Assembly (NCBI GenBank): GCA_964016885.1
Contig: OZ024741.1
Span: forward strand, 312,232,001-312,296,000
From: Eledone cirrhosa
Taxonomy: Eukaryota
DNA length: 64,000 bases
Reading direction: 5' to 3'
Shown here: positions 25,720-64,000 of the stretch, in pieces
Layout of the letters: every line of letters starts with the position of its first letter
Numbering within the stretch: the first letter of the stretch is position 1
Translations under genes and position numbers: made by a program
The notes under the pieces: model-generated
Database searches by the model: none
Seen by the model: the letters and a program-made list of their open reading frames with translations, nothing else
Told to the model about the DNA's origin: nothing

Positions 25720-25764
25720 GTGCGCCTTTCGTCCTTTTCCTCCAACTCTTCTCCGCCAACATCA

Positions 25765-31767: not shown

Positions 31768-32121
31768 TAGTGAAAGAGTAAAGAATAGCATGGTCAAGAG
31801 TACAACAATGGTTTTATTTACAGTATCAACAATGGTTTCATTGATTAGGATGTCTAAAGTTTCCTTATCACTTGAAGTTGTGTCACTCAACCTTCAATAC
31901 AGTGTATGCCTAATCAAATAATCGGAATAACTGGAATAACTGCATCTGATTAACTGCAGTTATTCCGATGATTTGATTAGGCATACACTGTATTGAAGGT
32001 TGAGTGACAAAACTTCAAGTGATTAGCAAACTTTAGACATCCTAATCAATGAAACAATTGTTAATACTGTAAATAAAACCCTTTTTGTTCTGTTGACGAT
32101 GTTATTCTTCACACTTTCACT
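31768..32121. repeat. ~350-bp palindrome (arms ~165 bp) whose arms each contain a hammerhead-like motif
   Basis: 31768-31933 is the reverse complement of 31957-32121 with few mismatches. The right arm reads cagttatt-CCGATGA-t-ttgattagg...cctaatcaa-t-GAAA-CAATTG-TT-aatactg. Confidence 0.9.
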
Positions 32122-32281
32122 ATTATTACTGCAAGACTAACCTGCATAGGAATTCCCGTGAACTCGCCACCTAACAAAGGAAACCTCTTGTGGAGTCATA
32201 CAACGCCGTGCATTAAAACTAACCATAATACAGAGTACTCTCAACCTCTAACTGGATTACCTATAACAATAATTTGTCATC

Positions 32282-32372
<91 letters not shown>

Positions 32373-35058: not shown

Positions 35059-35091
35059 ATATATGTATATATATATCTATATATATGTATG

Positions 35092-35122
<31 letters not shown>

Positions 35123-36487
35123 GTTTGTTATTAAGGTATCACTTTCTCTGTGAGATATGTTTTAACTTTAATTATGTCTCATATAAAATAATACAACTGG
35201 TTTTCCACAAAATACATGTAGTTGGCACACCAAAGACTTAATTGAGTTCTTAACACGCAGGATTGATAATATTTTAGAAAAAACTAATTAACCCGGGTGT
35301 ATATTATTTTACTTTTCTCGTGACTCTTGGTTGTCTCCCTTTTCCGCTTCGGACGCTATGATACTTCCTCAGTCAAAAGACTGCGGGAATTTCAAATTCG
35401 GCGGTCATTCGATGCGTGAAGGGACAACTTAGCGGACACGAAAATTAACTGCGGTAAGGAATTTTTTCTCATATCGAAGTTTAATGGGCTTCCACTGACG
35501 ATTTATAAGTGCCCACCTAAATATATTCTTACATGAAAATATTTCAGGCTTCTACATAAACTGGAAACATTCTCCCAACTTGTAGAAATCTTATAATGAA
35601 ACAATTGTTTGGAAAGAGAGATATAGTTTAACTTTAATTATGTCTCATATAAAATAATACAACTGGCTTTCCACAAAATACATATAGTTAGCACTCGAAA
35701 CACTTAAATTAGGTTTATACTAACGTATAACCTAATGTTTGTTGAGTGAGATGGTTACCAGTCGGAGTTTAGCTTGAAGCTATCTCTGTTATTGTATTAA
35801 ATATTTTACTCTTGATTTGGCCAGAGACTTTTATTTCCAGGTACCTTATAAACATGACTTTCCGTATTTATTACTGTTATGAGATATTGTTTGTTTTTTT
35901 GGGTATCACTTCTCTGTTTTTAACCTAAGAAAATATCTATATGCGTGTGTAAATACTTACATGCATACATTTATTTTTTTTAATTAATTGAGTTCTCAAC
36001 ACGCGGAATTAATAATGGTTTTGAAATAACTAATTAACCCGCGTGTATTAAATATTTTACTATTAGTTTGGCCAGAGATTTACAATCCCAAATGCCTTTT
36101 AAAGCGTAATTTTCCGTATTTACTACAGTTATGAGATGTGGTTTGTTATTTAGGTATCACTGTCTCTGTTTTTAGCCTAAGAAAATATCTATATGCGTGT
36201 GCAATTAATACACGCATACATTTATTTTTTTAAATTAATTGAGTTCTTAACACGCAGGATTGATAATGTTTGTGAAAAAACTAATTAACCCACGTGTATA
36301 TTATTTTACTTTTCTCGTGACTCGTGGTTGTCTCTCTTTTCAGCTTCGTGACGCTATGATACTTCCTCAGTCAAAAGACTGCTGGAATTTCAAATTTGGC
36401 GGTCATTCGATGCGTGAAGGGACAACTTAGCGGACACGAAAATTAACTGCGGTAAGGAATTTTTTCTTATATCAAAGTTTAATGGGC

Positions 36488-36612
36488 TTCCACTGACGAT
36501 TTATAAGTGCCCACCTAGATATATTATTACATGAAAATATGTTAGGCTTCTACATAAACTGGAAACATTCTCCCAAATTTCAGAAAACTTATAATGAAAC
36601 AATTGTTTGGAA
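36488..36612 (+). ncRNA. Type I hammerhead ribozyme motif (representative; one per long monomer)
   Basis: ttcca (36488-92)-CTGACGA (36493-99)-t-ttataagt...acttataa-t-GAAA (36596-99)-CAATTG-TT-tggaa (36608-12). Confidence 0.78.
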
Positions 36613-39600
36613 AGAGAGATATATTTTAAATTTAATTATGTCTCATATAAAATAATACAACTGGCTTTCCACAAAATACATATAGTTAGCACCCCAAACA
36701 CTTAAATTGGGTTTATACTAACGTATAACCTAATGTTTGTTGAGTGAGATGGTTACCAGTCGGAGTTTGGCTTAAAGCTATCTCTCTTATTGTATTAAAT
36801 ATTTTACTTTTGATTTGGCCAGAGACTTTTATTTCAAGGTACCTTATAAACATGACTTTCCGTATTTATTACTGTTATGAGATATTGTTTGTTTTTTTGG
36901 TTATCACTTCACTGTTTTTAGCCTAAGAAAATATCTATATGCGTGTGTAAATACTTACATGCATACATTTATTTCTTTACATTAATTGAGTTCTTAACAC
37001 GCAGGATTGATAATGTTTGTGAAAAAACTAATTAACCCACGTGTATATTATTTTACTTTTCTCGTGACTCGTGGTTGTCTCTCTTTTCCGCTTCGTGACG
37101 CTATGATTATTCCTCAATCAAAAGACTGCTGGAATTTCAAATTTGGCGGTCATTCGATGCGTGAAGGGACAACTTAGCGGACACGAAAATTAACTGCGCT
37201 AAGGATTTTTTTCTTGTATCAAAGTTTAATGGTCTTCCTCTACCGATTTATAAGTGCCCACCTAAATATATTCTTACATGAAAATATGTTAGGCTTCTAC
37301 GTAAACTGGAAACATTCTCCCAAATTGCCGAAAACATATAATGAAAGAATTGTTTGGAAAGAGAGATATATTTTAAATTTAATTAAGTCTCATATAAAAT
37401 AATACAACTGGCTTTCCACAAAATACATATAGTTAGCAGCCCAAACACTTAAATTGGGTTTATACTAACGTATAACCTAATGTTTGTTGAGTGAGATGGT
37501 TACCACTCGAAGTTTAGCTTAAAGCTATCTCTGTTATTGTATTAAATATTTTACTCTTGATTTGGCCAGAGACTTTTATTTCCAGGTACCTTATAAACAT
37601 GACATTCCGTATCTATTACTGTTATGAGATATTGTTTGTTTTTTGCGGTATCACTTCTCTGTTTTTAGCCTAAGAAAATATCTATATGCGTGTGTAAATA
37701 CTTACATGCATACATTTATTTTTTTAAATTAATTGAGTTCTTAACATGCGGAATTAATAATGGTTTTGAAACAAATAATTAACCCGCGTGTATTAAATAT
37801 TTTACTCTTAATTTGGCTAGAGATTTACATTCCCAAATGCCTTTTAAAGTGTAACTTTCCGTATTTATTACAGTTATGAGATGTGGTTTGTTATTTAGGT
37901 ATCACTTTCTCTGTTTATAGCATAACAAAATATATATATGCGTGTGCAATTAATACACGCATACATTTATTTTTTTTAAATTAATTGAGTTCTTAACACG
38001 CAGGATTGATAATACTTTAGAAAAAACTAATTAACCCGGGTGTATTATTTTACTTTTCTTGTGACTCTTGGTTGTCTCCCTTTTCCGCTTCGTGACGCTA
38101 TGATACTTCCTCAGTCAAAAGACTGCGGGAATTTCAAATTCGGCGGTCATTCGATGCGTGAAGGGACAACTTAGCGGACACGAAAATTAACTGTGGTAAG
38201 GAATTTTTTGTTGTATCAAAGTTTAATGGGCTTCCACTAACGATTTATAAGTGCCCACCTAAATATATTCTTACATGAAAATATGTTAGGCTTCTACATA
38301 AACTGGAAACATTCTCCCAACTTGCAGAAAACTTATAATGAAACAATTGTTTGGAAAGATAGATATATTTTAACTTTAATTATGTCTCATATAAAATAAT
38401 ACAACTGGCTTTCCACAAAATACATATAGTTAGCACCCCAAACACTTAAATTAGGTTTATACTAACGTATAACCTAATGTTTGTTGAGTTAGATGGTTAC
38501 CAGTCGGAGTTTAGCTTAAAGCTATCTCTGTTATTGTATTAAATATTTTACTTTTGATTTGGCCAGAGACTTTTATTTCCAGGTACCTTATAAACATGAC
38601 TTTCCGTATTTATTACTGTTATGAGATATTGTTTGTTTTTTTGGTTATCACTTCACTGTTTTTAGCCTAAGAAAATATCTATATGCGTGTGTAAATACTT
38701 ACATGCATACATTTATTTCTTTACATTAATTGAGTTCTTAACACGCAGGATTGATAATGTTTGTGAAAAAACTAATTAACCCACGTGTATATTATTTTAC
38801 TTTTCTCGTGACTCGTGGTTGTCTCTCTTTTCCGCTTCGTGACGCTATGATTATTCCTCAATCAAAAGACTGCTGGAATTTCAAATTTGGCGGTCATTCG
38901 ATGCGTGAAGGGACAACTTAGCGGACACGAAAATTAACTGCGCTAAGGAATTTTTTCTTGTATCAAAGTTTAATGGTCTTCCTCTACCGATTTATAAGTG
39001 CCCACCTAAATATATTCTTACATGAAAATATGTTAGGCTTCTACGTAAACTGGAAACATTCTCCCAAATTGCCGAAAACATATAATGAAAGAATTGTTTG
39101 GAAAGAGAGATATATTTTAAATTTAATTATGTCTCATATAAAATAATACAACTGGCTTTCCACAAAATACATATAGTTAGCAGCCCAAACACTTAAATTG
39201 GGTTTATACTAACGTATAACCTAATGTTTGTTGAGTGAGATGGTTACCAGTCGGAGTTTAGCTTAAAGCTATCTCTGTTATTGTATTAAATATTTTACTC
39301 TTGATTTGGCCAGAGACTTTTATTTCCAGGTACCTTATAAACATGACTTTCCGTATTTATTACTGTTATGAGATATTGTTTTTTTTTTGGTTAACACTTC
39401 TCTGTTTTTAGCCTAAGAAAATATCTATATGCGTGTGTAAATACTTACAAGCATACATTTATTTTTTTTAATTAATTGAGTTCTTAACACGCAGGACTGA
39501 TAGTGTTTGTGAAAAAACTAATTAACCCACGTGTATATTATTTTACTTTTCTCGTGATTCGTAGTTGTCTCTCTTTTCCGCTTCGTGACGCTATGATTCT

Positions 39601-42600
39601 TCCTCAGTCAAAAGACTGCTGTAATTTCAAATTTGGCGGTCATTCGATGCATGAAGGGACAACTTAGCGGACACGAAAATTAACTGCGGTAAGGAATTTT
39701 TTCTTATATCAAAGTTTAATGGGCTTCCACTGACGATTTATAAGTGCCCACCTAAATATATTCTTACATGAAAATATGTAAGGCTTCTACATAAACTGGA
39801 AACATTCTCCCAACTTGCAGAAAACTTATAATGAAACAATTGTTTGGAAAGAGAGATATCTGTTAAATTTAATTATGTCTCATTTAAAATAATACAACTG
39901 GCTTTCCACAAAATACATATAGTTAGCAGCCCAAACACTTAAATTGGGTTTATACTAACGTATAACCTAATGTTTGTTGAGTGAGATGGTTACCACTCGA
40001 AGTTTAGCTTAAAGCTATCTCTGTTATTGTATTAAATATTTTACTCTTGATTTGGCCAGAGACATTTATTTCCAGGTACCTTATAAACATGACATTCCGT
40101 ATCTATTACTGTTATGAGATATTGTTTGTTTTTTGCGGTATCACTTCTCTGTTTTTAGCCTAAGAAAATATCTATATGCGTGTGTAAATACTTACATGCA
40201 TACATTTATTTTTTTAAATTAATTGAGTTCTTAACATGCGGAATTAATAATGGTTTTGAAACAAATAATTAACCCGCGTGTATTAAATATTTTACTCTTA
40301 ATTTGGCTAGAGATTTACATTCCCAAATGCCTTTTAAAGTGTAACTTTCCGTATTTATTACAGTTATGAGATGTGGTTTGTTATTTAGGTATCACTTACT
40401 CTGTTTATAGCATAACAAAATATATATATGCGTGTGCAATTAATACACGCATACATTTATTTTTTTAAAATTAATTGAGTTCTTAACACGCAGGATTGAT
40501 AATACTTTAGAAAAAACTAATTAACCCGGGTGTATTATTTTACTTTTCTTGTGACTCTTGGTTGTCTCCCTTTTCCGCTTCGTGACGCTATGATACTTCC
40601 TCAGTCAAAAGACTGCGGGAATTTCAAATTCGGCGGTCATTCGATGCGTGAAGGGACAACTTAGCGGACACGAAAATTAACTGTGGTAAGGAATTTTTTA
40701 TTGTATCAAAGTTTAATGGGCTTCCACTAACGATTTATAAGTGCCCACCTAAATATATTCTTACATGAAAATATGTTAGGCTTCTACATAAACTGGAAAC
40801 ATTCTCCCAACTTGCAGAAAACTTATAATGAAACAATTGTTTGGAAAGATAGATATATTTTAACTTTAATTATGTCTCATATAAAATAATACAACTGGCT
40901 TTCCACAAAATACATATAGTTAGCACCCCAAACACTTAAATTAGGTTTATACTAACGTATAACCTAATGTTTGTTGAGTTAGATGGTTACCAGTCGGAGT
41001 TTAGCTTAAAGCTATCTCTGTTATTGTATTAAATATTTTACTTTTGATTTGGCCAGAGACTTTTATTTCAAGGTACCTTATAAACATGACTTTCCGTATG
41101 TATTACTGTTATGAGATATTGTTTGTTTTTTTGGTTATCACTTCTCTGTTTTTAGCCTAAGAAAATATCTATATGCGTGTGTAAATACTTACATGCATAC
41201 ATTTCTTTTTTTACATTAATTGAGTTCTTATCACGCAGGATTGATAATGTTTGTGAAAAAACTAATTAACCCACGTGTATATTATTTTACTTTTCTCGTG
41301 ACTCGTGGTTGTCTCTCTTTTCCGCTTCGTGACGCTATGATACTTCCTCAGTCAAAAGACTGCTGGAATTTCAAATTTGGCGGTCATTCGATGCGTGAAG
41401 GGACAACTTAGCGGACACGAAAATTAACTGTGGTAAGGAATTTTTTATTGTATCAAAGTTTAATGGGCTTCCACTAACGATTTATAAGTGCCCACCTAAA
41501 TATATTCTTACATGAAAATATGTTAGGCTTCTACATAAACTGGAAACATTCTCCCAACTTGCAGAAAACTTATAATGAAACAATTGTTTGGAAAGATAGA
41601 TATATTTTAAATTTAATTATGTCTCATATAAAATAATACAACTGGCTTTCCACAAAATACATATAGTTAGCACCCCAAACACTTAAATTAGGTTTATACT
41701 AACGTATAACCTAATGTTTGTTGAGTTAGATGGTTACCAGTCGGAGTTTAGCTTAAAGCTATCTCTGTTACTGTATTAAATATTTTACTTTTGATTTGGC
41801 CAGAGACTTTTATTTCCAGGTACCTTATAAACATGACTTTCCGTATTTATTACTGTTATGAGATATTGTTTGTTTTTTTGGTTATCACTTCACTGTTTTT
41901 AGCCTAAGAAAATATCTATATGCGTGTGTAAATACTTACATGCATACATTTATTTCTTTACATTAATTGAGTTCTTAACACGCAGGATTGATAATGTTTG
42001 TGAAAAAACTAATTAACCCACGTGTATATTATTTTACTTTTCTCGTGACTCGTGGTTGTCTCTCTTTTCCGCTTCGTGACGCTATGATTATTCCTCAATC
42101 AAAAGACTGCTGGAATTTCAAATTTGGCGGTCATTCGATGCGTGAAGGGACAACTTAGCGGACACGAAAATTAACTGCGCTAAGGAATTTTTTCTTGTAT
42201 CAAAGTTTAATGGTCTTCCTCTACCGATTTATAAGTGCCCACCTAAATATATTCTTACATGAAAATATGTTAGGCTTCTACGTAAACTGGAAACATTCTC
42301 CCAAATTGCCGAAAACATATAATGAAAGAATTGTTTGGAAAGAGAGATATATTTTAAATTTAATTATGTCTCATATAAAATAATACAACTGGCTTTCCAC
42401 AAAATACATATAGTTAGCAGCCCAAACACTTAAATTGGGTTTATACTAACGTATAACCTAATGTTTGTTGAGTGAGATGGTTACCAGTCGGAGTTTAGCT
42501 TAAAGCTATCTCTGTTATTGTATTAAATATTTTACTCTTGATTTGGCCAGAGACTTTTATTTCCAGGTACCTTATAAACATGACTTTCCGTATTTATTAC

Positions 42601-45600
42601 TGTTATGAGATATTGTTTTTTTTTTGGTTAACACTTCTCTGTTTTTAGCCTAAGAAAATATCTATATGCGTGTGTAAATACTTACAAGCATACATTTATT
42701 TTTTTTAATTAATTGAGTTCTTAACACGCAGGAATGATAGTGTTTGTGAAAAAACTAATTAACCCACGTGTATATTATTTTACTTTTCTCGTGATTCGTA
42801 GTTGTCTCTCTTTTCCGCTTCGTGACGCTATGATTCTTCCTCAGTCAAAAGACTGCTGTAATTTCAAATTTGGCGGTCATTCGATGCATGAAGGGACAAC
42901 TTAGCGGACACGAAAATTAACTGCGGTAAGGAATTTTTTCTTATATCAAAGTTTAATGGGCTTCCACTGACGATTTATAAGTGCCCACCTAAATATATTC
43001 TTACATGAAAATATGTAAGGCTTCTACATAAACTGGAAACATTCTCCCAACTTGCAGAAAACTTATAATGAAACAATTGTTTGGAAAGAGAGATATCTGT
43101 TAAATTTAATTATGTCTCATTTAAAATAATACAACTGGCTTTCCACAAAATACATATAGTTAGCAGCCCAAACACTTAAATTGGGTTTATACTAACGTAT
43201 AACCTAATGTTTGTTGAGTGAGATGGTTACCACTCGAAGTTTAGCTTAAAGCTATCTCTGTTATTGTATTAAATATTTTACTCTTGATTTGGCCAGAGAC
43301 ATTTATTTCCAGGTACCTTATAAACATGACATTCCGTATCTATTACTGTTATGAGATATTGTTTGTTTTTTGCGGTATCACTTCTCTGTTTTTAGCCTAA
43401 GAAAATATCTATATGCGTGTGTAAATACTTACATGCATACATTTATTTTTTTAAATTAATTGAGTTCTTAACATGCGGAATTAATAATGGTTTTGAAACA
43501 AATAATTAACCCGCGTGTATTAAATATTTTACTCTTAATTTGGCTAGAGATTTACATTCCCAAATGCCTTTTAAAGTTTAACTTTCCGTATTTATTACAG
43601 TTATGAGATGTGGTTTGTTATTTAGGTATCACTTACTCTGTTTATAGCATAACAAAATATATATATGCGTGTGCAATTAATACACGCATACATTTATTTT
43701 TTTTAAATTAATTGAGTTCTTAACACGCAGGATTGATAATACTTTAGAAAAAACTAATTAACCCGGGTGTATTATTTTACTTTTCTTGTGACTCTTGGTT
43801 GTCTCCCTTTTCCGCTTCGTGACGCTATGATACTTCCTCAGTCAAAAGACTGCGGGAATTTCAAATTCGGCGGTCATTCGATGCGTGAAGGGACAACTTA
43901 GCGGACACGAAAATTAACTGTGGTAAGGAATTTTTTATTGTATCAAAGTTTAATGGGCTTCCACTAACGATTTATAAGTGCCCACCTAAATATATTCTTA
44001 CATGAAAATATGTTAGGCTTCTACATAAACTGGAAACATTCTCCCAACTTGCAGAAAACTTATAATGAAACAATTGTTTGGAAAGATAGATATATTTTAA
44101 CTTTAATTATGTCTCATATAAAATAATACAACTGGCTTTCCACAAAATACATATAGTTAGCACCCCAAACACTTAAATTAGGTTTATACTAACGTATAAC
44201 CTAATGTTTGTTGAGTTAGATGGTTACCAGTCGGAGTTTAGCTTAAAGCTATCTCTGTTATTGTATTAAATATTTTACTTTTGATTTGGCCAGAGACTTT
44301 TATTTCAAGGTACCTTATAAACATGACTTTCCGTATGTATTACTGTTATGAGATATTGTTTGTTTTTTTGGTTATCACTTCTCTGTTTTTAGCCTAAGAA
44401 AATATCTATATGCGTGTGTAAATACTTACATGCATACATTTCTTTTTTTACATTAATTGAGTTCTTATCACGCAGGATTGATAATGTTTGTGAAAAAACT
44501 AATTAACCCACGTGTATATTATTTTACTTTTCTCGTGACTCGTGGTTGTCTCTCTTTTCCGCTTCGTGACGCTATGATACTTCCTCAGTCAAAAGACTGC
44601 TGGAATTTCAAATTTGGCGGTCATTCGATGCGTGAAGGGACAACTTAGCGGACACGAAAATTAACTGCGCTAAGGAATTTTTTATTGTATCAAAGTTTAA
44701 TGGGCTTCCACTAACGATTTATAAGTGCCCACCTAAATATATTCTTACATGAAAATATGTTAGGCTTCTACATAAACTGGAAACATTCTCCCAACTTGCA
44801 GAAAACTTATAATGAAACAATTGTTTGGAAAGATAGATATATTTTAAATTTAATTATGTCTCATATAAAATAATACAACTGGCTTTCCACAAAATACATA
44901 TAGTTGGCACCCCAAACACTTAAATTATGTTTATACTAACGTATAACCTAATGTTTGTTGAGTGAGATGGTTACCAGTCGGAGTTTAGCTTAAAGCTCTC
45001 TCTGTTATTGTATTAAATATTTTACTCTTGATTTGGCCAGAGACTTTTATTTCAAGGTACCTTATAAAAATGACTTTCCGTATTTATTACTGTTATGAGA
45101 TATTGTTTGTTTTTTTGGTTATCACTTCTCTGTTTTTAGCCTGTGAAAATATCTATATGCGTGTGTAAATACTTACATGCATACATTTCTTTTTTTACAT
45201 TAATTGAGTTCTTAATACGCAGGATTGATAATGTTTGTGAAAAAACTAATTAACCCACGTGTATATTATTTTACTTTTCTCGTGATTCGTGGTTGTCTCT
45301 TTTTTCCGCTTCGTGACGCTATGATACTTCCTCAGTCAAAAGACTGCTGGAATTTCAAATTTGGCGGTCATTCGATGCGTGAAGGGACAACTTAGCGGAC
45401 ACGAAAATTAACTGCGGTAAGGAATTTTTACTAATATCAAAGTTTAATGGGCTTCCACTGACGATTTATAAGTGCCGACCTAAATATATTCTTACATGAA
45501 AATATGTTAGGCCTCTACATAAACTGGAAACATTCTCCCAACTTGCAGAAAACTTATAATGAAACAATTGTTTGGAAAGAGAGATATATTTCAAATTTAA

Positions 45601-48600
45601 TTATGTCTCATATAAAATAATACAACTGGCTTTCCACAAAATACATATAGTTAGCACCCCAAACACTTAGATTGGGTTTATACTAACGTATAACCTAATG
45701 TTTGTTGAGTGAGATGGTTACCAGTCGGAGTTTAGCTTAAAGCTATCTCTGTTATTGTATTAAATATTTTACTCTTGATTTGGCCAGAGACTTTTATTTC
45801 AAGGTACCTTATAAACATGACTTTCCGTATTTATTACTGTTATGAGATATTGTTTTTTTTTTGGTTAACACTTCTCTGTTTTTAGCCTAAGAAAATATCT
45901 ATATGCGTGTGGAAATACTTACATGCATACATTTATTTTTTTAAATTAATTGAGTTCTTAACACGCAGGATTGATAATGTTTGTGAAAAAACTAATTAAC
46001 CAACGTGTATATTATTTAACTTTTCTCGTGATTCGTGGTTGTCTCTCTTTTCCGCTTCGTGACGCTATGATACTTCCTCAGTCAAAAGACTGCTGGAATT
46101 TCAAATTTGGCGGTCATTCGATGCGTGAAGGGACAACTTAGCGGACACGAAAATTAACTGCGGTAAGGAATTTTTTCTAATATCAAAGTTTAATGGGCTT
46201 CCACTAACAATTTATAAGTGCCCACCTAAATATATTCTTACATGAAAATATGTTAGGCTTCTACATAAACTGAAAACATTCTCCCAACTTGCAGAAAACT
46301 TATAATGAAACAATTGTTTGGAAAGAGAGATATATTTTAACTTTAATTATGTCTCATATAAAATAATACAACTGGCTTTCCACAAAATACATATAGTTAG
46401 CACCCCAAACACTTAAATTAGTTTTATACTAACGTATAACCTAATGTTTGTTGAGTGAGATGGTTACCTGTCGGAGTTTAGCTTAAAGCTATCTCTGTTA
46501 TTGTATTAAATATTTTACTCTTGATTTGGCCAGAGACTTTTATTTCAAGGTACCTTATAAACATGACTTTCCGTATTTATTACTGTTATGAGATATTGTT
46601 TGTTTTTTTGGTTATGACTTCTCTGTTTTTAGCCTAAGAAAATATCTATATGCGTGTGGAAATACTTACATGCATACATTTATTTTTTTAAATTAATTGA
46701 GTTCTTAACACGCAGGATTGATAATGTTTGTGAAAAAACTAATTAACCCACGTGTATATTATTTTACTTTTCTCGTGATTCGTGGTTGTCTCTCTTTTCC
46801 GCTTCGTGACGCTATGATACTTCCTCAGTCAAAAGACTGCTGGAATTTCAAATTTGGCGGTCATTCGATGCGTGAAGGGACAACTTAGCGGACACGAAAA
46901 TTAACTGCGGTAAGGAATTTTTTCTTATATCAAAGTTTAATGGGCTTCCACTAACGATTTATAAGTGCCCACCTAAATATATTCTTACATGAAAATATGT
47001 TAGGCTTCTACATAAACTGAAATCATTCTCCCAACTTGCAGAAAACTTATAATGAAACAATTTGTTTGGAAAGAGAGATATATTTTAAATTTAATTATGT
47101 CTCATATAAAATAATACAACTGGCTTTCCACAAAATACATATAGTTAGCACCCCAAACACTTAAATTAGGTTTATACTAACGTATAACCTAATGTTTGTT
47201 GAGTGAGATGGTTACCAGTCGGAGTTTAGCTTAAAGCTATCTCTGTTATTGTATTAAATATTTTACTCTTGATTTGGCCAGAGACTTTTATTTCCAGGTA
47301 CCTTATAAACATGACTTTCCGTATTTCTTACTGTTATGAGATATTGTTTTTTTTTTGGGGGGGGGGGGTATCACTTCTCTGATTTTAGCCTAAGAAAATA
47401 TCAATATGCGTGTGTGAATACTTACATGCATACATTTATTTTTTTTAAATAATTGAGTTCTTAACACGCGGAATTAATAATGGTTTTGAAACAACTAATT
47501 AACCCGCGTGTATTAAATATTTTACTCTTAATTTGGCCAGAGATTTACATTCCCAAATGCCTTTTAAAGCGTAACTTTCCGTATTTATTACAGTTATGAG
47601 ATGTGGTTTGCTATTTAGGTATCACTTTCTCTGTTTTTAGCCTAAGAAAATATATATATTTGTGTGTAATTAATACACGCATACATTTATTTTTTAAAAA
47701 TTAATTGAGTTCTTAACACGCAGGATTGATAATATTTTAGAAAAAACTAATTAACCCGGGTGTATATTATTTTACTTTTCTCGTGACTCTTGGTTGTCTC
47801 CCTTTTCCGCTTCGTGACGCTATGATACTTCCTCAGTCAAAAACCTGCGGAATATCAAATTCGGCGGTCATTTGATGCGTGAAGGGACAACTTAGCGGAC
47901 ACGAAAATTAACTGCGGTAAGGAATTTTTTCTCATATCGAAGTTTAATAGGCTTCCACTGACGATTTATAAGTGCCCACCTCAATATATTCTTACATGAA
48001 AATATGTTAGGCTTCTACATAAACTGGAAACATTCTCCCAACTTGCAGAAAACTTATAATGAAACAATTGTTTGGAAAGATAGATATATTTTAAATTTAA
48101 TTATGTCTCATATAAAATAATACAACTGGCTTTCCACAAAATACATATAGTTAGCACCCCAAACACTTAAATTAGGTTTATACTAACGTATAACCTAATG
48201 TTTGTTGAGTTAGATGGTTACCAGTCGGAGTTTAGCTTAAAGCTATCTCTGTTACTGTATTAAATATTTTACTTTTGATTTGGCCAGAGACTTTTATTTC
48301 CAGGTACCTTATAAACATGACTTTCCGTATTTATTACTGTTATGAGATATTGTTTGTTTTTTTGGTTATCACTTCACTGTTTTTAGCCTAAGAAAATATC
48401 TATATGCGTGTGTAAATACTTACATGCATACATTTATTTCTTTACATTAATTGAGTTCTTAACACGCAGGATTGATAATGTTTGTGAAAAAACTAATTAA
48501 CCCACGTGTATATTATTTTACTTTTCTCGTGACTCGTGGTTGTCTCTCTTTTCCGCTTCGTGACGCTATGATTATTCCTCAATCAAAAGACTGCTGGAAT

Positions 48601-51600: not shown

Positions 51601-54600
51601 GGTTATCACTTCTCTGTTTTTAGCCTGTGAAAATATCTATATGCGTGTGTAAATACTTACATGCATACATTTCTTTTTTTACATTAATTGAGTTCTTAAT
51701 ACGCAGGATTGATAATGTTTGTGAAAAAACTAATTAACCCACGTGTATATTATTTTACTTTTCTCGTGATTCGTGGTTGTCTCTTTTTTCCGCTTCGTGA
51801 CGCTATGATACTTCCTCAGTCAAAAGACTGCTGGAATTTCAAATTTGGCGGTCATTCGATGCGTGAAGGGACAACTTAGCGGACACGAAAATTAACTGCG
51901 GTAAGGAATTTTTACTAATATCAAAGTTTAATGGGCTTCCACTGACGATTTATAAGTGCCGACCTAAATATATTCTTACATGAAAATATGTTAGGCCTCT
52001 ACATAAACTGGAAACATTCTCCCAACTTGCAGAAAACTTATAATGAAACAATTGTTTGGAAAGAGAGATATATTTCAAATTTAATTATGTCTCATATAAA
52101 ATAATACAACTGGCTTTCCACAAAATACATATAGTTAGCACCCCAAACACTTAGATTGGGTTTATACTAACGTATAACCTAATGTTTGTTGAGTGAGATG
52201 GTTACCAGTCGGAGTTTAGCTTAAAGCTATCTCTGTTATTGTATTAAATATTTTACTCTTGATTTGGCCAGAGACTTTTATTTCAAGGTACCTTATAAAC
52301 ATGACTTTCCGTATTTATTACTGTTATGAGATATTGTTTTTTTTTTGGTTAACACTTCTCTGTTTTTAGCCTAAGAAAATATCTATATGCGTGTGGAAAT
52401 ACTTACATGCATACATTTATTTTTTTAAATTAATTGAGTTCTTAACACGCAGGATTGATAATGTTTGTGAAAAAACTAATTAACCAACGTGTATATTATT
52501 TAACTTTTCTCGTGATTCGTGGTTGTCTCTCTTTTCCGCTTCGTGACGCTATGATACTTCCTCAGTCAAAAGACTGCTGGAATTTCAAATTTGGCGGTCA
52601 TTCGATGCGTGAAGGGACAACTTAGCGGACACGAAAATTAACTGCGGTAAGGAATTTTTTCTAATATCAAAGTTTAATGGGCTTCCACTAACAATTTATA
52701 AGTGCCCACCTAAATATATTCTTACATGAAAATATGTTAGGCTTCTACATAAACTGAAAACATTCTCCCAACTTGCAGAAAACTTATAATGAAACAATTG
52801 TTTGGAAAGAGAGATATATTTTAACTTTAATTATGTCTCATATAAAATAATACAACTGGCTTTCCACAAAATACATATAGTTAGCACCCCAAACACTTAA
52901 ATTAGTTTTATACTAACGTATAACCTAATGTTTGTTGAGTGAGATGGTTACCTGTCGGAGTTTAGCTTAAAGCTATCTCTGTTATTGTATTAAATATTTT
53001 ACTCTTGATTTGGCCAGAGACTTTTATTTCAAGGTACCTTATAAACATGACTTTCCGTATTTATTACTGTTATGAGATATTGTTTGTTTTTTTGGTTATG
53101 ACTTCTCTGTTTTTAGCCTAAGAAAATATCTATATGCGTGTGGAAATACTTACATGCATACATTTATTTTTTTAAATTAATTGAGTTCTTAACACGCAGG
53201 ATTGATAATGTTTGTGAAAAAACTAATTAACCCACGTGTATATTATTTTACTTTTCTCGTGATTCGTGGTTGTCTCTCTTTTCCGCTTCGTGACGCTATG
53301 ATACTTCCTCAGTCAAAAGACTGCTGGAATTTCAAATTTGGCGGTCATTCGATGCGTGAAGGGACAACTTAGCGGACACGAAAATTAACTGCGGTAAGGA
53401 ATTTTTTCTTATATCAAAGTTTAATGGGCTTCCACTAACGATTTATAAGTGCCCACCTAAATATATTCTTACATGAAAATATGTTAGGCTTCTACATAAA
53501 CTGAAATCATTCTCCCAACTTGCAGAAAACTTATAATGAAACAATTTGTTTGGAAAGAGAGATATATTTTAAATTTAATTATGTCTCATATAAAATAATA
53601 CAACTGGCTTTCCACAAAATACATATAGTTAGCACCCCAAACACTTAAATTAGGTTTATACTAACGTATAACCTAATGTTTGTTGAGTGAGATGGTTACC
53701 AGTCGGAGTTTAGCTTAAAGCTATCTCTGTTATTGTATTAAATATTTTACTCTTGATTTGGCCAGAGACTTTTATTTCCAGGTACCTTATAAACATGACT
53801 TTCCGTATTTCTTACTGTTATGAGATATTGTTTTTTTTTTGGGGGGGGGGGGGTATCACTTCTCTGATTTTAGCCTAAGAAAATATCAATATGCGTGTGT
53901 GAATACTTACATGCATACATTTATTTTTTTTAAATAATTGAGTTCTTAACACGCGGAATTAATAATGGTTTTGAAACAACTAATTAACCCGCGTGTATTA
54001 AATATTTTACTCTTAATTTGGCCAGAGATTTACATTCCCAAATGCCTTTTAAAGCGTAACTTTCCGTATTTATTACAGTTATGAGATGTGGTTTGCTATT
54101 TAGGTATCACTTTCTCTGTTTTTAGGCTAAGAAAATATATATATTTGTGTGTAATTAATACACGCATACATTTATTTTTTAAAAATTAATTGAGTTCTTA
54201 ACACGCAGGATTGATAATATTTTAGAAAAAACTAATTAACCCGGGTGTATATTATTTTACTTTTCTCGTGACTCTTGGTTGTCTCCCTTTTCCGCTTCGT
54301 GACGCTATGATACTTCCTCAGTCAAAAACCTGCGGAATATCAAATTCGGCGGTCATTTGATGCGTGAAGGGACAACTTAGCGGACACGAAAATTAACTGC
54401 GGTAAGGAATTTTTTCTCATATCGAAGTTTAATAGGCTTCCACTGACGATTTATAAGTGCCCACCTCAATATATTCTTACATGAAAATATGTTAGGCTTC
54501 TACATAAACTGGAAACATTCTCCCAACTTGCAGAAAACTTATAATGAAACAATTGTTTGGAAAGAGAGATATATTTCAAATTTAATTATGTCTCATATAA

Positions 54601-57600
54601 AATAATACAACTGGCTTTCCACAAAATACATATAGTTAGCACCCCAAACACTTAGATTGGGTTTATACTAACGTATAACCTAATGTTTGTTGAGTGAGAT
54701 GGTTACCAGTCGGAGTTTAGCTTAAAGCTATCTCTGTTATTGTATTAAATATTTTACTCTTGATTTGGCCAGAGACTTTTATTTCAAGGTACCTTATAAA
54801 CATGACTTTCCGTATTTATTACTGTTATGAGATATTGTTTTTTTTTTGGTTAACACTTCTCTGTTTTTAGCCTAAGAAAATATCTATATGCGTGTGGAAA
54901 TACTTACATGCATACATTTATTTTTTTTAATTAATTGAGTTCTTAACACACAGGATTGATAATGTTTGTGAAAAAACTAATTAACCAACGTGTATATTAT
55001 TTAACTTTTCTCGTGATTCGTGGTTGTCTCTCTTTTCCGCTTCGTGACGCTATGATACTTCCTCAGTCAAAAGACTGCTGGAATTTCAAATTTGGCGGTC
55101 ATTCGATGCGTGAAGGGACAACTTAGCGGACACGAAAATTAACTGCGCTAAGGAATTTTTTATTGTATCAAAGTTTAATGGGCTTCCACTAACGATTTAT
55201 AAGTGCCCACCTAAATATATTCTTACATGAAAATATGTTAGGCTTCTACATAAACTGAAAACATTCTCCCAACTTGCAGAAAACTTATAATGAAACAATT
55301 GTTTGGAAAGAGAGATATATTTTAACTTTAATTATGTCTCATATAAAATAATACAACTGGCTTTCCACAAAATACATATAGTTAGCACCCCAAACACTTA
55401 AATTAGGTTTATACTAACGTATAACCTAATGTTTGTTGAGTGAGATGGTTACCTGTCGGAGTTTAGCTTAAAGCTATCTCTGTTATTGTATTAAATATTT
55501 TACTCTTGATTTGGCCAGAGACTTTTATTCAAGGTACCTTATAAACATGACTTTCCGTATTTATTACTGTTATGAGATATTGTTTGTTTTTTTGGTTATG
55601 ACTTTTCTGTTTTTAGCCTAAGAAAATATCTATATGCGTGTGGAAATACTTACATGCATACATTTATTTTTTTAAATTAATTGAGTTCTTAACACGCAGG
55701 ATTGATAATGTTTGTGAAAAAACTAATTAACCCACGTGTATATTATTTTACTTTTCTCGTGATTCGTGGTTGTCTCTCTTTTCCGCTTCGTGACGCTATG
55801 ATACTTCCTCAGTCAAAAGACTGCTGGAATTTCAAATTTGGCGGTCATTCGATGCGTGAAGGGACAACTTAGCGGACACGAAAATTAACTGCGGTAAGGA
55901 ATTTTTTCTTATATCAAAGTTTAATGGGCTTCCACTAACGATTTATAAGTGCCCACCTAAATATATTCTTACATGAAAATATGTTAGGCTTCTACATAAA
56001 CTGAAATCATTCTCCCAACTTGCAGAAAACTTATAATTAAACAATTTGTTTGGAAAGAGAGATATATTTTAAATTTAATTATGTCTCATATAAAATAATA
56101 CAACTGGCTTTCCACAAAATACATATAGTTAGCACCCCAAACACTTAAATTAGGTTTATACTAACGTATAACCTAATGTTTGTTGAGTGAGATGGTTACC
56201 AGTCGGAGTTTAGCTTAAAGCTATCTCTGTTATTGTATTAAATATTTTACTCTTGATTTGGCCAGAGACTTTTATTTCCAGGTACCTTATAAACATGACT
56301 TTCCGTATTTATTACTGTTATGAGATATTGTTGTTTTTTTTTTTGGGGGGGGTATCACTTCTCTGATTTTAGCCTAAGAAAATATCAATATGCGTGTGTG
56401 AATACTTACATGCATACATTTATTTTTTTAAAATAATTGAGTTCTTAACACGCGGAATTAATAATGGTTTTGAAACAACTAATTAACCCGCATGTATTAA
56501 ATATTTTACTCTTAATTTGGCCAGAGATTTACATTCCCAAATGCCTTTTAAAGCCTAACTTTCCGTATTTATTACAGTTATGAGATGTGGTTTGCTATTT
56601 AGGTATCACTTTCTCTGTTTTTAGCCTAAGAAAATATATATATTTGTGTGTAATTAATACACGCATACATTTATTTTTTAAAAATTAATTGAGTTCTTAA
56701 CACGCAGGATTGATAATATTTTAGAAAAAACTAATTAACCCGGGTGTATATTATTTTACTTTTCTCGTGACTCTTGGTTGTCTCCCTTTTCCGCTTCGTG
56801 ACGCTATGATACTTCCTCAGTCAAAAACCTGCGGAATATCAAATTCGGCGGTCATTTGATGCGTGAAGGGACAACTTAGCGGACACGAAAATTAACTGCG
56901 GTAAGGAATTTTTTCTCATATCGAAGTTTAATAGGCTTCCACTGACGATTTATAAGTGCCCACCTCAATATATTCTTACATGAAAATATGTTAGGCTTCT
57001 ACATAAACTGGAAACATTCTCCCAACTTGTAGGAAACTTATAATGAAACAATTGTTTGGAAAGAGAGATATATTTTAACTTTAATTATGTCTCATAAAAT
57101 AATACAACTGGCTTTCCGCAAAATACATATAGTTAGCACCCCAAACACTTAAATTAGGTTTATACTAACGTATAACCTAATGTTTGTTGCGTGAGATGGT
57201 TACCAGTTGGAGTTTAGCTTAAAGCTATCTCTGTTATTGTATTAAATATTTTACTCTTGATTTGGCCAGAGACTTTTATTTCCAGGTACCTTATAAACAT
57301 GACTTTCCGTATTTATTACTGTTATGAGATATTGTTTTTTTTTTGGTTAACACTTCTCTGTTTTTAGCCTAAGAAAATATCTATATGCGTGTGTAAATAC
57401 TTACAAGCATACATTTATTTTTTTTAATTAATTGAGTTCTTAACACGCAGGATTGATAGTGTTTGTGAAAAAACTAATTAACCCACGTGTATATTATTTT
57501 ACTTTTCTCGTGATTCGTGGTTGTCTCTCTTTTCCGCTTCGTGACGCTATGATTCTTCCTCAGTCAAAAGACTGCTGTAATTTCAAATTTGGCGGTCATT

Positions 57601-60600
57601 CGATGCATGAAGGGACAACTTAGCGGACACGAAAATTAACTGCGGTAAGGAATTTTTTCTTATATCAAAGTTTAATGGGCTTCCACTGACGATTTATAAG
57701 TGCCCACCTAAATATATTCTTACATGAAAATATGTAAGGCTTCTACATAAACTGGAAACATTCTCCCAACTTGCAGAAAACTTATAATGAAACAATTGTT
57801 TGGAAAGAGAGATATATGTTAAATTTAATTATGTCTCATTTAAAATAATACAACTGGCTTTCCACAAAATACATATAGTTAGCAGCCCAAACACTTAAAT
57901 TGGGTTTATACTAACGTATAACCTAATGTTTGTTGAGTGAGATGGTTACCACTCGAAGTTTAGCTTAAAGCTATCTCTGTTATTGTATTAAATATTTTAC
58001 TCTTGATTTGGCCAGAGACTTTTATTTCCAGGTACCTTATAAACATGACTTTCCGTATTTATTACTGTTATGAGATATTGTTTGTTTTTTTGGGTATCAC
58101 TTCTCTGTTTTTAGCCTAAGAAAATATCTATATGCGTGTGTAAATACTTACATGCATACATTTATTTTTTTAAATTAATTGAGTTCTTAACATGCGGAAT
58201 TAATAATGGTTTTGAAACAAATAATTAACCCGCGTGTATTAAATATTTTACTCTTAATTTGGCTAGAGATTTACATTCCCAAATGCCTTTTAAAGTGTAA
58301 CTTTCCGTATTTATTACAGTTATGAGATGTGGTTTGTTATTTAGGTATCACTTTCTCTGTTTATAGCATAACAAAATATATATATGCGTGTGCAATTAAT
58401 ACACGCATACATTTATTTTTTTTAAATTAATTGAGTTCTTAACACGCAGGATTGATAATACTTTAGAAAAAACTAATTAACCCGGGTGTATATTATTTTA
58501 CTTTTCTTGTGACTCTTGGTTGTCTCCCTTTTCAGCTTCGTGACGCTATGATACTTCCTCAGTCAAAAGACTGCGGGAATTTCAAATTCGGCGGTCATTC
58601 GATGCGTGAAGGGACAACTTAGCGGACACGAAAATTAACTGTGGTAAGGAATTTTTTATTGTATCAAAGTTTAATGGGCTTCCACTAACGATTTATAAGT
58701 GCCCACCTAAATATATTCTTACATGAAAATATGTTAGGCTTCTACATGAACTGGAAACATTCTCCCAACTTGCAGAAAACTTATAATGAAACAATTGTTT
58801 GGAAAGATAGATATATTTTAACTTTAATTATGTCTCATATAAAATAATACAACTGGCTTTCCACAAAATACATATAGTTAGCACCCCAAACACTTAAATT
58901 AGGTTTATACTAACGTATAAAGTAATGTTTGTTGAGTTAGATGGTTACCAGTCGGAGTTTAGCTTAAAGCTATCTCTGTTATTGTTTTAAATATTTTACT
59001 TTTGATTTGGCCAGAGACTTTTATTTCAAGGTACCTTATAAACATGACTTTCCGTATGTATTACTGTTATGAGATATTGTTTGTTTTTTTGGTTATCACT
59101 TCTCTGTTTTTAGCCTAAGAAAATATCTATATGCGTGTGTAAATACTTACATGCATACATTTCTTTTTTTACCTTAATTGAGTTCTTATCACGCAGGATT
59201 GATAATGTTTGTGAAAAAACTAATTAACCCACGTGTATATTATTTTACTTTTCTCGTGACTCGTGGTTGTCTCTCTTTTCCGCTTCGTGACGCTATGATA
59301 CTTCCTCAGTCAAAAGACTGCTGGAATTTCAAATTTGGCGGTCATTCGATGCGTGAAGGGACAACTTAGCGGACACGAAAATTAACTGCGCTAAGGAATT
59401 TTTACTTGTATCAAAGTTTAATGGGCATCCACTGACGATTTATAAGTGCCCACCTAAATATATTCTTACATGAAAATATGTTAGGCTTCTACATAAACTG
59501 GAAACATTCTCCCAGCTTGCAGAAAACTTATAATGAAACAATTGTTTGGAAAGAGAGATATATTTTAACTTTAATTATGTCTCATATAAAATAATACAAC
59601 TGGCTTTCCGCAAAATACATATAGTTAGCACCCGAAACACTTAAATTAGCTTTATACTAGCGTAAAACCTAATTTTTGTTGAGTGAGATGGTTACCAGTC
59701 GGAGTTTAGCTTAAAGCTATCTCTGTTATTGTATTAAATATTTTACTCTTGATTTGGCCAGAGACTTTTATTTCCAGGTACCTTATAAACATGACTTTCC
59801 GTATTTATTACTGTTATGAGATATTGTTTTTTTTGGGGGGTACCACTTCTCTGTTTTTAGCCTAAGAAAATATCTATATGCGTGTGTAAATACTTACTTG
59901 CATACATTTATTTTTTTTAATTAATTGAGTTCTTAACACGCAGGATTGATAATGTTTGTGAAAAAACTAATTAACCCACGTGTATATTATTTTACTTTTC
60001 TCGTGACTCGTGGTTGTCTCTCTTTTCCGCTTCGTGACGCTATGATACTTCCTCAGTCAAAAGACTGCTGGAATTTCAAATTTGGCGGTCATTTGATGCG
60101 TGAAGGGACAACTTAGCGGACACGAAAATTAACTGCGCTAACGAATGTTTTCTTGTATCAAAGTTTAATGGGCATCCACTGACGATTTATAAGTGCCCAC
60201 CTAAATATATTCTTACATGAAAATATGTTAGGCTTCTACATAAACTGGAAACATTCTCCCAACTTGCAGAAAACTTATAATGAAACAATTGTTTGGAAAG
60301 AGAGATATATTTTAACTTTAATTATGTCTCATATAAAATAATACAACTGGCTTTTCACAAAATACATATAGTTAGCACCACAAACACTTAAATTAGGTTT
60401 ATACTAACGTATAAAGTAATGTTTGTTGAGTGAGATGGTTACCAGTCGGAGTTTAGCTTAAAGCAATCTCTGTTATTGTATTAAATATTTTACTCTTGAT
60501 TTGGCCAGAGACTTTTATTTCCAGGTACCTTATAAACATGACTTTCCGTATTTATTACTGTTATGAGATATTGTTTTTTTTGGGGGGTATCACTTCTCTG

Positions 60601-61667
60601 TTTTTAGCCTAAGAAAATATCTATATGCGTGTGTAAATACTTACTTGCATTCATTTATTTTTTTTAATTAATTGAGTTCTTAACACGCAGGATTGATAAT
60701 GTTTGTGAAAAAACTAATTAACCCACGTGTATATTATTTTACTTTTCTCGTGACTCGTGGTTGTCTCTCTTTTCCGCTTCGTGACGCTATGATACTTCCT
60801 CAGTCAAAAGACTGCTGGAATTTCAAATTTGGCGGTCATTCGATGCGTGAAGGGACAACTTAGCGGACACGAAAATTAACTGCGCTAACGAATGTTTTCT
60901 TGTATCAAAGTTTAATGGGCATCCACTGACGATTTATAAGTGCCCACCTAAATATATTCTTACATGAAAATATGTTAGGCTTCTACATAAACTGGAAACA
61001 TTCTCCCAACTTGCAGAAAACTTATAATGAAACAATTGTTTGGAAAGAGAGATATATTTTAACTTTAATTATGTCTCATATAAAATAATACAACTGGCTT
61101 TCCTCAAAATACATATAGTTAGCACCCCAAACACTTAAATTAGGTTTATACTAACGTATAAAGTAATGTTTGTTGAGTGAGATGGTTACCAGTCGGAGTT
61201 TAGCTTAAAGCAATCTCTGTTATTGTATTAAATATTTTACTTTTGATTTGGCCAGAGACTTTTATTTCAAGGTACCTTATAAACATGACATTCGGTATTT
61301 ATTAATGTTATGAGATATTGTTTGTTTTTTTGGGTATCACTTCTCTGTTTTTAGCCTAAGAAAATATCTATATGCGTGTGTAAATACTTACATGCATACA
61401 TTTATTTTTTTTAATTAATTGAGTTCTTAACACGCAGGATTGATAATGTTTGTGAAAAAACTAATTAACCCACGTGTATATTATTTTACTTTTCTCGTGA
61501 CTCGTGGTTGTCTCTCTTTTCCGCTTCGTGACGCTATGATACTTCCTCAGTCAAAAGACTGCTGGAATTTCAAATTTGGCGGTCATTCGATGCGTGAAGG
61601 GACAACTTAGCGGACACGAAAATTAACTGCGCTAAGGAATTTTTTCTTATATCAAAGTTTAATGGGC

Positions 61668-61792
61668 TTCCACTGACGATTTATAAGTGCCCACCTAAAT
61701 ATATTCTTACATGAAAATATGTTAGGCTTCTACATAAACTGGAAACATTCTCCCAACTTGTAGAAAACTTATAATGAAACAATTGTTTGGAA
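61668..61792 (+). ncRNA. Type I hammerhead ribozyme motif, best-preserved copy type
   Basis: Same architecture. The stem II insert additionally pairs as cctaa-atatatt/aatatgt-tagg and ttctaca/tgtagaa. Confidence 0.78.
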
Positions 61793-64000
61793 AGAGAGAT
61801 ATATTTTAACTTTAATTATGTCTCATATAAAATAATACAACTGGATTTCCACAAAATACATATAGTTAGCACCCGAAACACTTAAATTAGGTTTATACTA
61901 ACGTATAACCTAATTTTTGTTGAGTGAGATGGTTACCAGTCGGAGTTTAGCTTAAAGCTATCTCTGTTATTGTATTAAATATTTTACTCTTGATTTGGCC
62001 AGAGACTTTTATTTCCAGGTACCTTATAAACATGACTTTCCGTATTTATTACTGTTATGAGATATTGTTTTTTTGGGGGGTACCACTTCTCTGTTTTTAG
62101 CCTAAGAAAATATCTATATGCGTGTGTAAATACTTACTTGCATACATTTATTTTTTTTAATTAATTGAGTTCTTAACACGCAGGATTGATAATGTTTGTG
62201 AAAAAACTAATTAACCCACGTGTATATTATTTTACTTTTCTCGTGACTCGTTGTTGTCTCTCTTTTCCGCTTCGTGACGCTATGATACTTCCTCAGTCAA
62301 AAGACTGCTGGAATTTCAAATTTGGCGGTCATTCGATGCGTGAAGGGACAACTTAGCGGACACGAAAATTAACTGCGCTAAGGAATTTTTTCTTATATCA
62401 AAGTTTAATGGGCTTCCACTGACGATTTATAAGTGCCCACCTAAATATATTCTTAGATGAAAATATGTTAGGCTTCTACATAAACTGGAAACATTCTCCC
62501 AACTTGTAGAGAACTTATAATGAAACAATTGTTTGGAAAGAGAGATATATTTTAACTTTAATTATGTCTCATATAAAATAATACAACTGGCGTTCCACAA
62601 AATGCATATAGTTAGCACCCCAAACACTTAAATTAGGTTTATACTAACGTATAACCTAATGTTTGTTGAGTGAGATGGTTACCAGTCGGAGTTTAGCTTA
62701 AAGCTATCTCTGTTATTGTATTAAATATTTTACTTTTGATTTGACCAGTGACTTTTATTTCAAGGTACCTTATAAACATGACTTTCCGTATTTATTACTG
62801 TTATGAGATATTGTTTGTTTTTTTTGGGTATCACTTCTCTGTTTTTAGCCTAAGATAATATCTATATGCGTGTGTAAATACTTACATGCATACATTTATT
62901 TTTTTAAATTAATTGAGTTCTTAACACGCAGGATTGATAATGTTTGTGAAAAAACTAATTAACCCACGTGTATATTATTTTACTTTTCTCGTGACTCGTG
63001 GTTGTCTCTCTTTTCCGCTTCGTGACGCTATGATACTTCCTCAGTCAAAAGACTGCTGGAATTTCAAATTTGGCGGTCATTCGATGCGTGAAGGGACAAC
63101 TTAGCGGAAATGAAAATTAACTGCGCTAAGGAATTTTTTCTTATAGCAAAGTTTAATGGGCTTCCACTGACGATTTATAAGTGCCCACCTAAATATATTC
63201 TTACATGAAAATATGTTAGGCTTCTACATAAACTGGAAACATTCTCCCAACTTGTAGAACACTTATAATGAAACAATTGTTTGGAAAGAGAGATATATTT
63301 TAACTTTAATTATGTCTCATATAAAATAATACAACTGGATTTCCACAAAATACATATAGTTAGCACCCGAAACACTTAAATTAGGTTTATACTAACGTAT
63401 AACCTAATTTTTGTTGAGTGAGATGGTTACCAGTCGGAGTTTAGCTTAAAGCTAGCTCTGTTATTGTATTAAATATTTTACTCTTGATTTGGCCAGAGAC
63501 TTTTATTTCCAGGTACCTTATAAACATGACTTTCCGTATTTATTACTGTTATGAGATATTGTTTGTTTTTTTGGGTATCACTTCTCTGTTTTTAGCCTAA
63601 GAAAATATCTATATGCGTGTGTAAATACTTACATGCATACATTTATTTTTTAAAATTAATTGAGTTCTTAACACGCAGGATTGATAATGTTTGTGAAAAA
63701 ACTAATTAACCCACGTGTATATTATTTTACTTTTCTCGTGACTCGTGGTTGTCTCTCTTTTCCGCTTCGTGACGCTATGATACTTCCTCAGTCAAAAGAC
63801 TGCTGGAATTTCAAATTTGGCGGTCATTCGATGCGTGAAGGGACAACTTAGCGGACACGAAAATTAACTGCGCTAAGGAATTTTTACTTGTATCAAAGTT
63901 TAATGGGCATCCACTGACGATTTATAAGTGCCCACCTAAATATATTCTTACATGAAAATATGTTAGGCTTCTACATAAACTGGAAACAATCTCCCAACTT

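Follow-up and report, generated by a model that had tools for sequence, protein, structure and literature searches.

How does a long tandem array of ribozyme-bearing repeats come to stand in a genome, and what does the ribozyme contribute to its spread? The question is raised by a 64,000-nucleotide stretch of Eledone cirrhosa DNA (contig OZ024741.1, positions 312,232,001 to 312,296,000 of the forward strand; called the window here, with position 1 as its first letter), which belongs to a 3.0-Gb genome. The initial annotation had described an array of at least 29 kb, starting at 35239, in which every 747-bp monomer encodes a hammerhead ribozyme. A long array is indeed present, but its start is corrected to about 35152 and its length to about 64 kb in all. 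The reading considered likely here is that the locus belongs to a non-coding hammerhead family with thousands of copies in (TA)n tracts, predicted to cleave as a dimer and copied by the reverse transcriptase (RT) of a Hydra-type Penelope-like element (PLE).

The hammerhead motif and its constraint

The motif TTCCA CTGACGA T TTATAAGT (78 nt) ACTTATAA T GAAA CAATTG TT TGGAA was found at 36488-36612 and 61668-61792, just where the initial annotation had placed it. The second of these copies is taken as the representative intact hammerhead:

61668..61688, plus strand: 5' half, with stem I at 61668-72, core CUGACGA at 61673-79, U10.1 at 61680 and stem II at 61681-88
61689..61766, plus strand: 78-nt stem II insert, with GCCCA, hairpin a at 61694-61726 and hairpin b at 61728-61765
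61767..61792, plus strand: 3' half, with stem II at 61767-74, U11.1, GAAA at 61776-79, palindrome CAAUUG at 61780-85, UU, the predicted cut after 61787 and stem I at 61788-92
61663..61667, plus strand: UGGGC, the predicted partner of GCCCA at 61689-61693 in a stem I / loop II pseudoknot

A CUGANGA core, GAAA and UH at the stem I/II junction define a type I hammerhead, and all are present in the intact units. The motif is thus real, but it is not intact in every unit as had been claimed: among the 36 window units the core reads CTGACGA in 18, CTAACGA in 12, CTACCGA in 4 and CTAACAA in 2, and only 18 units are intact. Counted over the entire array, 57 of 80 units are fully intact, more than 30 of them standing side by side without a break. 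Two or more consecutive units with a complete type I hammerhead are found at 59427-64000 and beyond, and also in dispersed dimers. Examples of broken units are:

37235..37359, plus strand: CTACCGA core and GAATTG stem III, a type seen 4 times
38232..38356, plus strand: CTAACGA core, G5 lost, with 12 such units in the window

It is scarcely credible that this is an ordinary satellite with a hammerhead-like string arising by chance. None of 4000 dinucleotide-shuffled 747-nt units contained the motif on either strand when stem II was set at 6 or more and stem I at 4 or more, and 2 of 4000 did so at looser limits. What speaks for chance is that Rfam gave no hammerhead match in the window at gathering score, nor in 60000-64000 at E<=5 (scans of the window, of 60000-64000 and of 31000-35200 returned low-complexity microRNA noise without a hammerhead), and that the minimum-free-energy fold of a single monomer does not show the hammerhead (z -0.55), which costs 6.4 kcal/mol to force. 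The lack of an Rfam match is likely due to the stem II insert; hammerheads with large branched inserts escape Rfam, and such families are therefore probably undercounted. The fully canonical sister subfamilies, together with the constraint, covariation and dispersed insertion anatomy set out below, refute a chance origin in substance.

To avoid selecting on the ribozyme, loci were sampled by a 24-nt tail motif that lies outside it. From 78 tail-anchored segments, 47 were picked as reaching the ribozyme; two were mis-picks and the remaining 45 formed nine clusters. The initial annotation had proposed, as a test of its own claim, asking whether the core is any more constrained than the rest of the monomer, and the claim withstood it. 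All 11 core columns were invariant in the nine subfamily consensuses, compared with 184 of 321 columns (57%) overall (P 0.002, for subfamilies that are related to one another). Core cells differed from their own subfamily in 1 of 451 cases, as against 294 of 12,637 elsewhere. At the sites that do vary, N7 is T, C or A, H17 is T, A or C and never G, position 10.1-11.1 is G-C or U.U, and the stem III palindrome is CGATCG, CGGCCG or CAATTG. As read from these alignments, variation at N7, H17, 10.1-11.1 and the palindrome is confined to tolerated changes. The sister subfamilies are canonical, with CUGAUGA, G10.1-C11.1, CGAUCG or CGGCCG and a GUC or GUA triplet.

Structure was examined in 44 aligned rows, made up of a single window unit, 38 of those 45 segments and five sister copies; the segments left out were three that came from a locus already represented and four that carried deletions. 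The G10.1-C11.1 pair of the sister subfamilies was found in 13 of 42 alignment rows and in all 46 copies of the sister-copy sample; the array subfamily lacks it and has U.U instead. This U10.1.U11.1 opposition is a reported natural hammerhead variant (PMC3088659), and it also occurs in a Neptune-type PLE hammerhead and in a neighbouring 431-bp repeat of the same genome. The predicted pairs were paired in 92.4% of cells, compared with 40.6-46.8% when the pairing was slid. Ten pairs change on both sides, a number reached by 41 of 500 shuffles, and five of them lie in insert hairpin a (5 of its 13 pairs). The stem III palindrome was paired in 97.6% of cells, with two-sided changes in 2 of 4 pairs. 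Without constraints, the RNAalifold consensus fold of the family yielded stems I and II and both insert hairpins.

The branched stem II insert described earlier is thereby borne out, as two hairpins of which one has compensatory changes, and the placing of the motif among dimer-type type I hammerheads of the retrozyme class is supported by the core, the palindromic stem III and the non-coding tandem units. A proposed extension of stem I (aaagtt.aa/ttaacttt) had to be given up, being absent from the sister subfamilies in the alignments. UGGGC and GCCCA were paired in 93.8% of cells with almost no covariation and, because the pairing hardly covaries, the pseudoknot stays a prediction; stem I-stem II pseudoknots are described as common in hammerheads (PMC3088659). 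It is very likely that the ribozyme motif is real and selected in the family. That array-type units would cleave measurably is a more guarded prediction, which we consider rather probable.

Dispersed copies and the proposed route of mobilisation

Exact matches in the genome numbered 2,062 for the 3' half of the array-type ribozyme and 3,818 for the 24-nt tail motif, and the first 100 listed places of each search were singles or pairs. Among the 78 tail-anchored segments, 59 stop in (TA)n at the same point, 15 continue into a next unit and 4 behave otherwise. The common end point lies inside the unit:

61947..61982, plus strand: unit-internal fixed 3' end of insertions (61982), 195 nt past the predicted cut

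The 5' ends of dispersed copies are variable (5'-truncated), and copies frequently continue round into another unit; where two units are present, the unit length is mostly 688-1030 nt, apart from two units of 582 and 602 nt that carry deletions. A fixed 3' end, 5' truncation, partial tandems and a microsatellite target, all of them seen in this family, make up a PLE-type insertion anatomy of the sort described in PMC8557442, and PLE-type mobilisation, as first suggested, is supported by it. No inverted 5'-truncated copies were found in 26 loci, where the opposite-strand matches (3 of 26) were internal hairpins.

By eye, the 195-nt tail past the cut site (61820-61975 and homologues) has apparent long-range compensatory pairing between subfamilies (ACTGG/CCAGT versus CCAAC/GTTGG) and, surrounding the 24-nt motif, a block that looks invariant. 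This block is a candidate protein-binding element.

An insertion anatomy as in PLEs (PMC8557442) also suits the idea that the units are pieces of the pseudo-long terminal repeats (pLTRs) of an autonomous PLE, its coding part having escaped sampling, as does the wealth of PLE families in the genome, with 10,595 GIY-YIG candidates of which 50 loci were examined. However, a PLE protein match was present in 20 of 291 family locus records (some overlapping) and never, by position and strand, as the upstream body of the repeat, and copies that exceed one unit in length run on into a further one. The ends of the 50 GIY-YIG loci showed no family homology except for one separate nearby copy. We regard such an origin as very improbable.

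The candidate partner is a Hydra-type PLE. The last 32 nt of the unit match its 3' end at 24 of 32 positions in an ungapped, anchored comparison, whereas six other PLE 3' ends gave 10-17 matches (P ~3e-4 after correction). Homology between the two is limited to this 32-nt end, and an unanchored local alignment is weak, with 8 of 500 shuffles scoring as high. The Hydra-type PLE has 23,643 exact motif matches in the genome, and the same GIY-YIG frame lies upstream in 4 of 30 of its loci. Its endonuclease has CxCX5C, CxxC and CxH motifs, which mark the (TA)n-targeting Hydra clade (PMC8557442), so that the clade is assigned by motif and not by tree. According to the same paper, Hydra families insert in (TA)n and non-autonomous partners resemble autonomous elements at the 3' end. 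A Hydra-type PLE is thus slightly favoured as the partner.

The 3' end of this PLE is itself hammerhead-shaped (L260:1478-1572: AGTTT CAGAAGA T CCC GTTAA GGG T GAAA ... TT AAACT). This end has 18,789 genome matches, and A replaces U4 in 100 of the 100 listed. Either it cleaves and is an unusual core variant, or it does not, and a very successful PLE carries a fixed dead hammerhead.

In the mechanism proposed here, two units on one transcript would pair their palindromes and be cut after GUU (GUC or GUA in the sisters). The PLE protein would nick (TA)n and start copying inside the unit, 195 nt past the cut site; the anatomy of the copies suggests that reverse transcription begins at the fixed 3' end, 61982. 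Internal initiation has been demonstrated for an Anolis PLE (PMC11167929). The template would mostly be an uncut multimer or a circle, since a cut linear monomer gives at most 195 nt of complementary DNA, yet 85 of 136 mapped insertions run past the whole ribozyme. That circles are involved is a tentative and somewhat doubtful suggestion.

The 5' ends of the 136 insertions (56 first, then 80 new ones) were mapped relative to the cut site. Twenty of the 136 lie at -30 to -1, just 3' of it, and 4 at 0 to +29 (p 0.0015); the excess was seen in the 56 copies and again in the 80. These ends, together with an invariant catalytic core in which H17 is never G in nine subfamilies, argue against the view that the hammerhead fold serves the PLE protein as a scaffold for binding or folding, with little or no cleavage in the array subfamily and uncut read-through RNA being mobilised. 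Such a scaffold would fit the fact that most insertions span the cut site, the weak U.U, GUU and AU-rich stem III of the array subfamily, and a report of a PLE hammerhead that is dispensable for insertion and cleaves in vitro only with protein (PMC11167929). It seems distinctly unlikely.

Several observations nevertheless weigh against a cleaving family copied by a Hydra-type PLE. The array subfamily has the weaker form of the ribozyme in its U.U opposition, GUU triplet and AU-rich stem III; the array-type palindrome duplex is at -6.4 kcal/mol, compared with -10.0 and -14.1 in the sisters; CGATCG may have become CAATTG by plain CpG decay; and a core-breaking change is present in 7 of 46 older sister copies. 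The excess of 5' ends amounts to no more than about double the rate found upstream of the ribozyme, just 3 of the 136 ends fall within 3 nt of the cut site, the G-C sister sample has a rate (0.0040 per nt) no higher than that upstream (0.0025-0.0055), and many 5' junctions lie at ATATAT-like (TA) microhomology. Because of the twofold rate, the G-C sample and the microhomology, the excess is only suggestive. When repeats within one insertion were compared with the best outside copy (266 tails), identity was higher in 12 cases, tied in 1 and lower in 13 (n=26); this evenness means that a circular template is not demonstrated. The link to the partner consists of 32 AT-rich bases compared across seven PLE families of many. 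As for published systems, insertion by the Anolis PLE in vitro did not need its hammerhead (PMC11167929), and 8 of 9 predicted Xenopus retrozyme dimers gave no cleavage while 1 of 9 cleaved (bioRxiv 10.64898/2026.07.22.740005).

A bolder version of the proposal seems unlikely. It would make this a structured RNA of 0.7-1 kb with a new hammerhead architecture (four-way-junction stem II, UGGGC/GCCCA docking, dimer), which undergoes cleavage and circularisation in vivo and uses a shared 3' signal to hijack a Hydra-clade PLE, with insertions that record both the RT start and the cleavage site. If true, the activity of the ribozyme while the PLE mobilises it could be read from the insertions in the genome.

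Growth of the array and its surroundings

The array itself is described by the following features:

35152..64000, plus strand: tandem array with 36 hammerhead-domain units in the window, continuing about 35 kb past the window end
35057..35122, no strand: (TA)n tract on the 5' side of the array
35793..36310, plus strand: two 252-nt sub-repeats, a and b (84% alike), of a 997-nt unit

With 80 units in all, the array follows (TA)n from about 35152 on, its first hammerhead-domain unit in the window beginning at 35490, and its far end reads ...GTATTAAATAT, the fixed 3' end of the family, followed again by (TA)n. The tract at 35057-35122 is likely to be the insertion target, as for dispersed copies. 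The 747-bp monomer of the initial annotation accounts for 26 of the 35 spacings in the window, the other 9 being about 997 nt; short spacings make up 62 of 79 in the whole array, which opens and closes with long units. The one 747-nt unit aligned holds a single a/b chimera of the 252-nt sub-repeats. Array units have no long reading frame (the longest is 74 codons) and a GC content of 0.31-0.33. A 29-nt piece (35123-35151) separates the (TA)n tract from the first unit; it resembles the 252-nt sub-repeat and possibly reflects a template switch at the 5' junction, and the first unit starts about 7 nt past the cut-site position.

Units are often 100% identical at block periods, several positions apart, and adjacent identical pairs number only 2 of 78; the first unit list for this comparison left out 10 units with damaged 3' halves. 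Broken cores recur in the same duplicated blocks. Blocks of identical units and repeated broken cores therefore indicate unequal exchange at the DNA level after one insertion. As the copy pattern shows, block duplication of DNA, chiefly of the shortened 747-nt unit, brought the locus to 80 units; the pattern also points to growth without selection on the core or on cleavage. The array does not hold up as a selected unit, broken cores having been amplified in blocks.

These data also bear on the possibility that the 64-kb array is an active, selected source, with new copies arising from 747-nt monomers or circles into which its read-through transcripts are cut. With 57 of 80 units intact and more than 30 of them adjacent, a transcript would be competent, and the monomer folded as a circle gave z -4.1 (against 25 shuffles). 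Half of the window units are broken, however, and were spread by block duplication. The five closest dispersed copies among those fetched all carry the long a+b unit, and two-unit copies of the array subfamily (L018, L303, L315) are spaced at 999-1005 nt, whereas the array spacings are mostly short. As its closest dispersed relatives have the long unit, the array does not look like their source, and its being an active, selected source is very unlikely.

Two further features lie near the array:

29625-30446: PLE GIY-YIG fragment with a Hydra-like linker
33898-35058, minus strand: 431-bp x 2.7 repeat adjoining the array, with compact hammerheads at 34156-34200 and 34587-34631

A PLE near the array had been put forward as the source of the RT. 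The fragment is there, but it was rejected as partner: it shares no DNA with the unit beyond chance, the best match being 17/32 anywhere in its 3' region and the rest 12-20-nt chance matches. It is of a different family from the Hydra-type PLE (37% identical), and no longer homologues of its endonuclease were found by word search. A minimal hammerhead at 31526-31583, 1.1 kb downstream of the fragment (CTGAAGA G GTCACAGC ... GCTGTCAC C GAAA TA), recurs at other loci.

The hammerhead of the 431-bp repeat, CTGA(C/A)GA T AGCT AATA AGCT T GAAA GTAG TA, is of the U.U type, and relatives elsewhere have a palindromic CTAG and 511-nt spacing (L228). The repeat is likely to represent another retrozyme family, not related to the first. 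Also noted in the genome were at least five PLE families of Neptune type (L159, L169, L219, L223, L221, L234), several with a (TA)n end; by eye, two have U3-A8-type cores (TTGATAA, TTGAAAA) and a CCGG palindrome, and one has U.U with GTAC. Elsewhere in the window a broken LINE-like element (23900-28840) contains endonuclease, RT and zf-RVT pieces. The stretches at ~14600-16450 and 18630-21130 have the same microsatellite order and a 12-bp TCTTTTCC(A/G)CTG minisatellite, and are apparently a local duplication of ~4-4.6 kb.

Comparison with known systems

The mechanism of retrozyme mobility is described as still to be worked out (bioRxiv 10.64898/2026.07.22.740005). The Eledone family bears on how retrozymes move and on whether PLE-type hammerheads cleave in vivo: it supplies thousands of insertions in which both start and end can be mapped, subfamilies whose ribozymes are of strong or of weak form, and a specific candidate for the partner. 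Within the literature searched, where most subscription papers were beyond reach, no two-hairpin stem II insert in a type I hammerhead was found, nor an earlier description of this family, nor any retrozyme for which (TA)n insertion ends had been mapped and a Hydra element proposed as partner, the supplements of Craig 2021 and of the 2026 preprint falling outside the scope.

The minimal hammerheads of PLE pLTRs described in 2014 by Cervera and de la Pena (PMC4209133) are similar in having a helix I of 4-5 bp, a helix II of 7-8 bp, a palindromic helix III and predicted dimer activity; the dimer requirement is reviewed in PMC6765202. The Eledone family differs from them in its lack of an attached open reading frame, its branched insert, the U.U of the array subfamily and the predicted pseudoknot. 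Its 5' truncation, partial tandems and microsatellite targets are shared by Hydra-clade PLEs and by non-autonomous Chlamys elements, MRC1 among them (Craig et al. 2021, PMC8557442), but the present family is non-coding, has its own large hammerhead and gave no inverted 5' copy in 26 loci.

Long arrays mixing intact and mutated hammerheads, alongside dispersed copies, are described for the Schistosoma W-elements and SM-alpha (PMC8490949), and newt satellite 2 and cricket pDo500 are grouped with hammerhead-bearing satellites that have long arrays. The Schistosoma, newt and cricket satellites have compact hammerheads for which cleavage or transcription has been demonstrated, whereas the Eledone array is known from sequence alone.

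The closest likeness is to the non-LTR retrozymes (Cervera and de la Pena 2020, PMC7229834; Li, Clavereau and Pollet 2026). As described there, these too are non-coding tandem units of low GC content (<45%) with a type I hammerhead, mostly monomers or dimers with rare long arrays, and with a proposed PLE dependence. The initial annotation had thought the monomer size and the scale of the array unusual for this class, but both are near or inside published ranges. Units here are 690-1030 nt, compared with 150-450 bp in PMC7229834 and 51-972 bp, in arrays of up to 300 units, in the 2026 preprint (bioRxiv 10.64898/2026.07.22.740005); 747 nt is inside the latter range and 997 nt just above it. What does set the Eledone family apart from the published descriptions is its 78-nt two-hairpin stem II insert, its fixed unit-internal 3' end in (TA)n and the form of its PLE link, which is a 32-nt end and not a whole pLTR. 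By sequence criteria, the family belongs with the non-LTR retrozymes.

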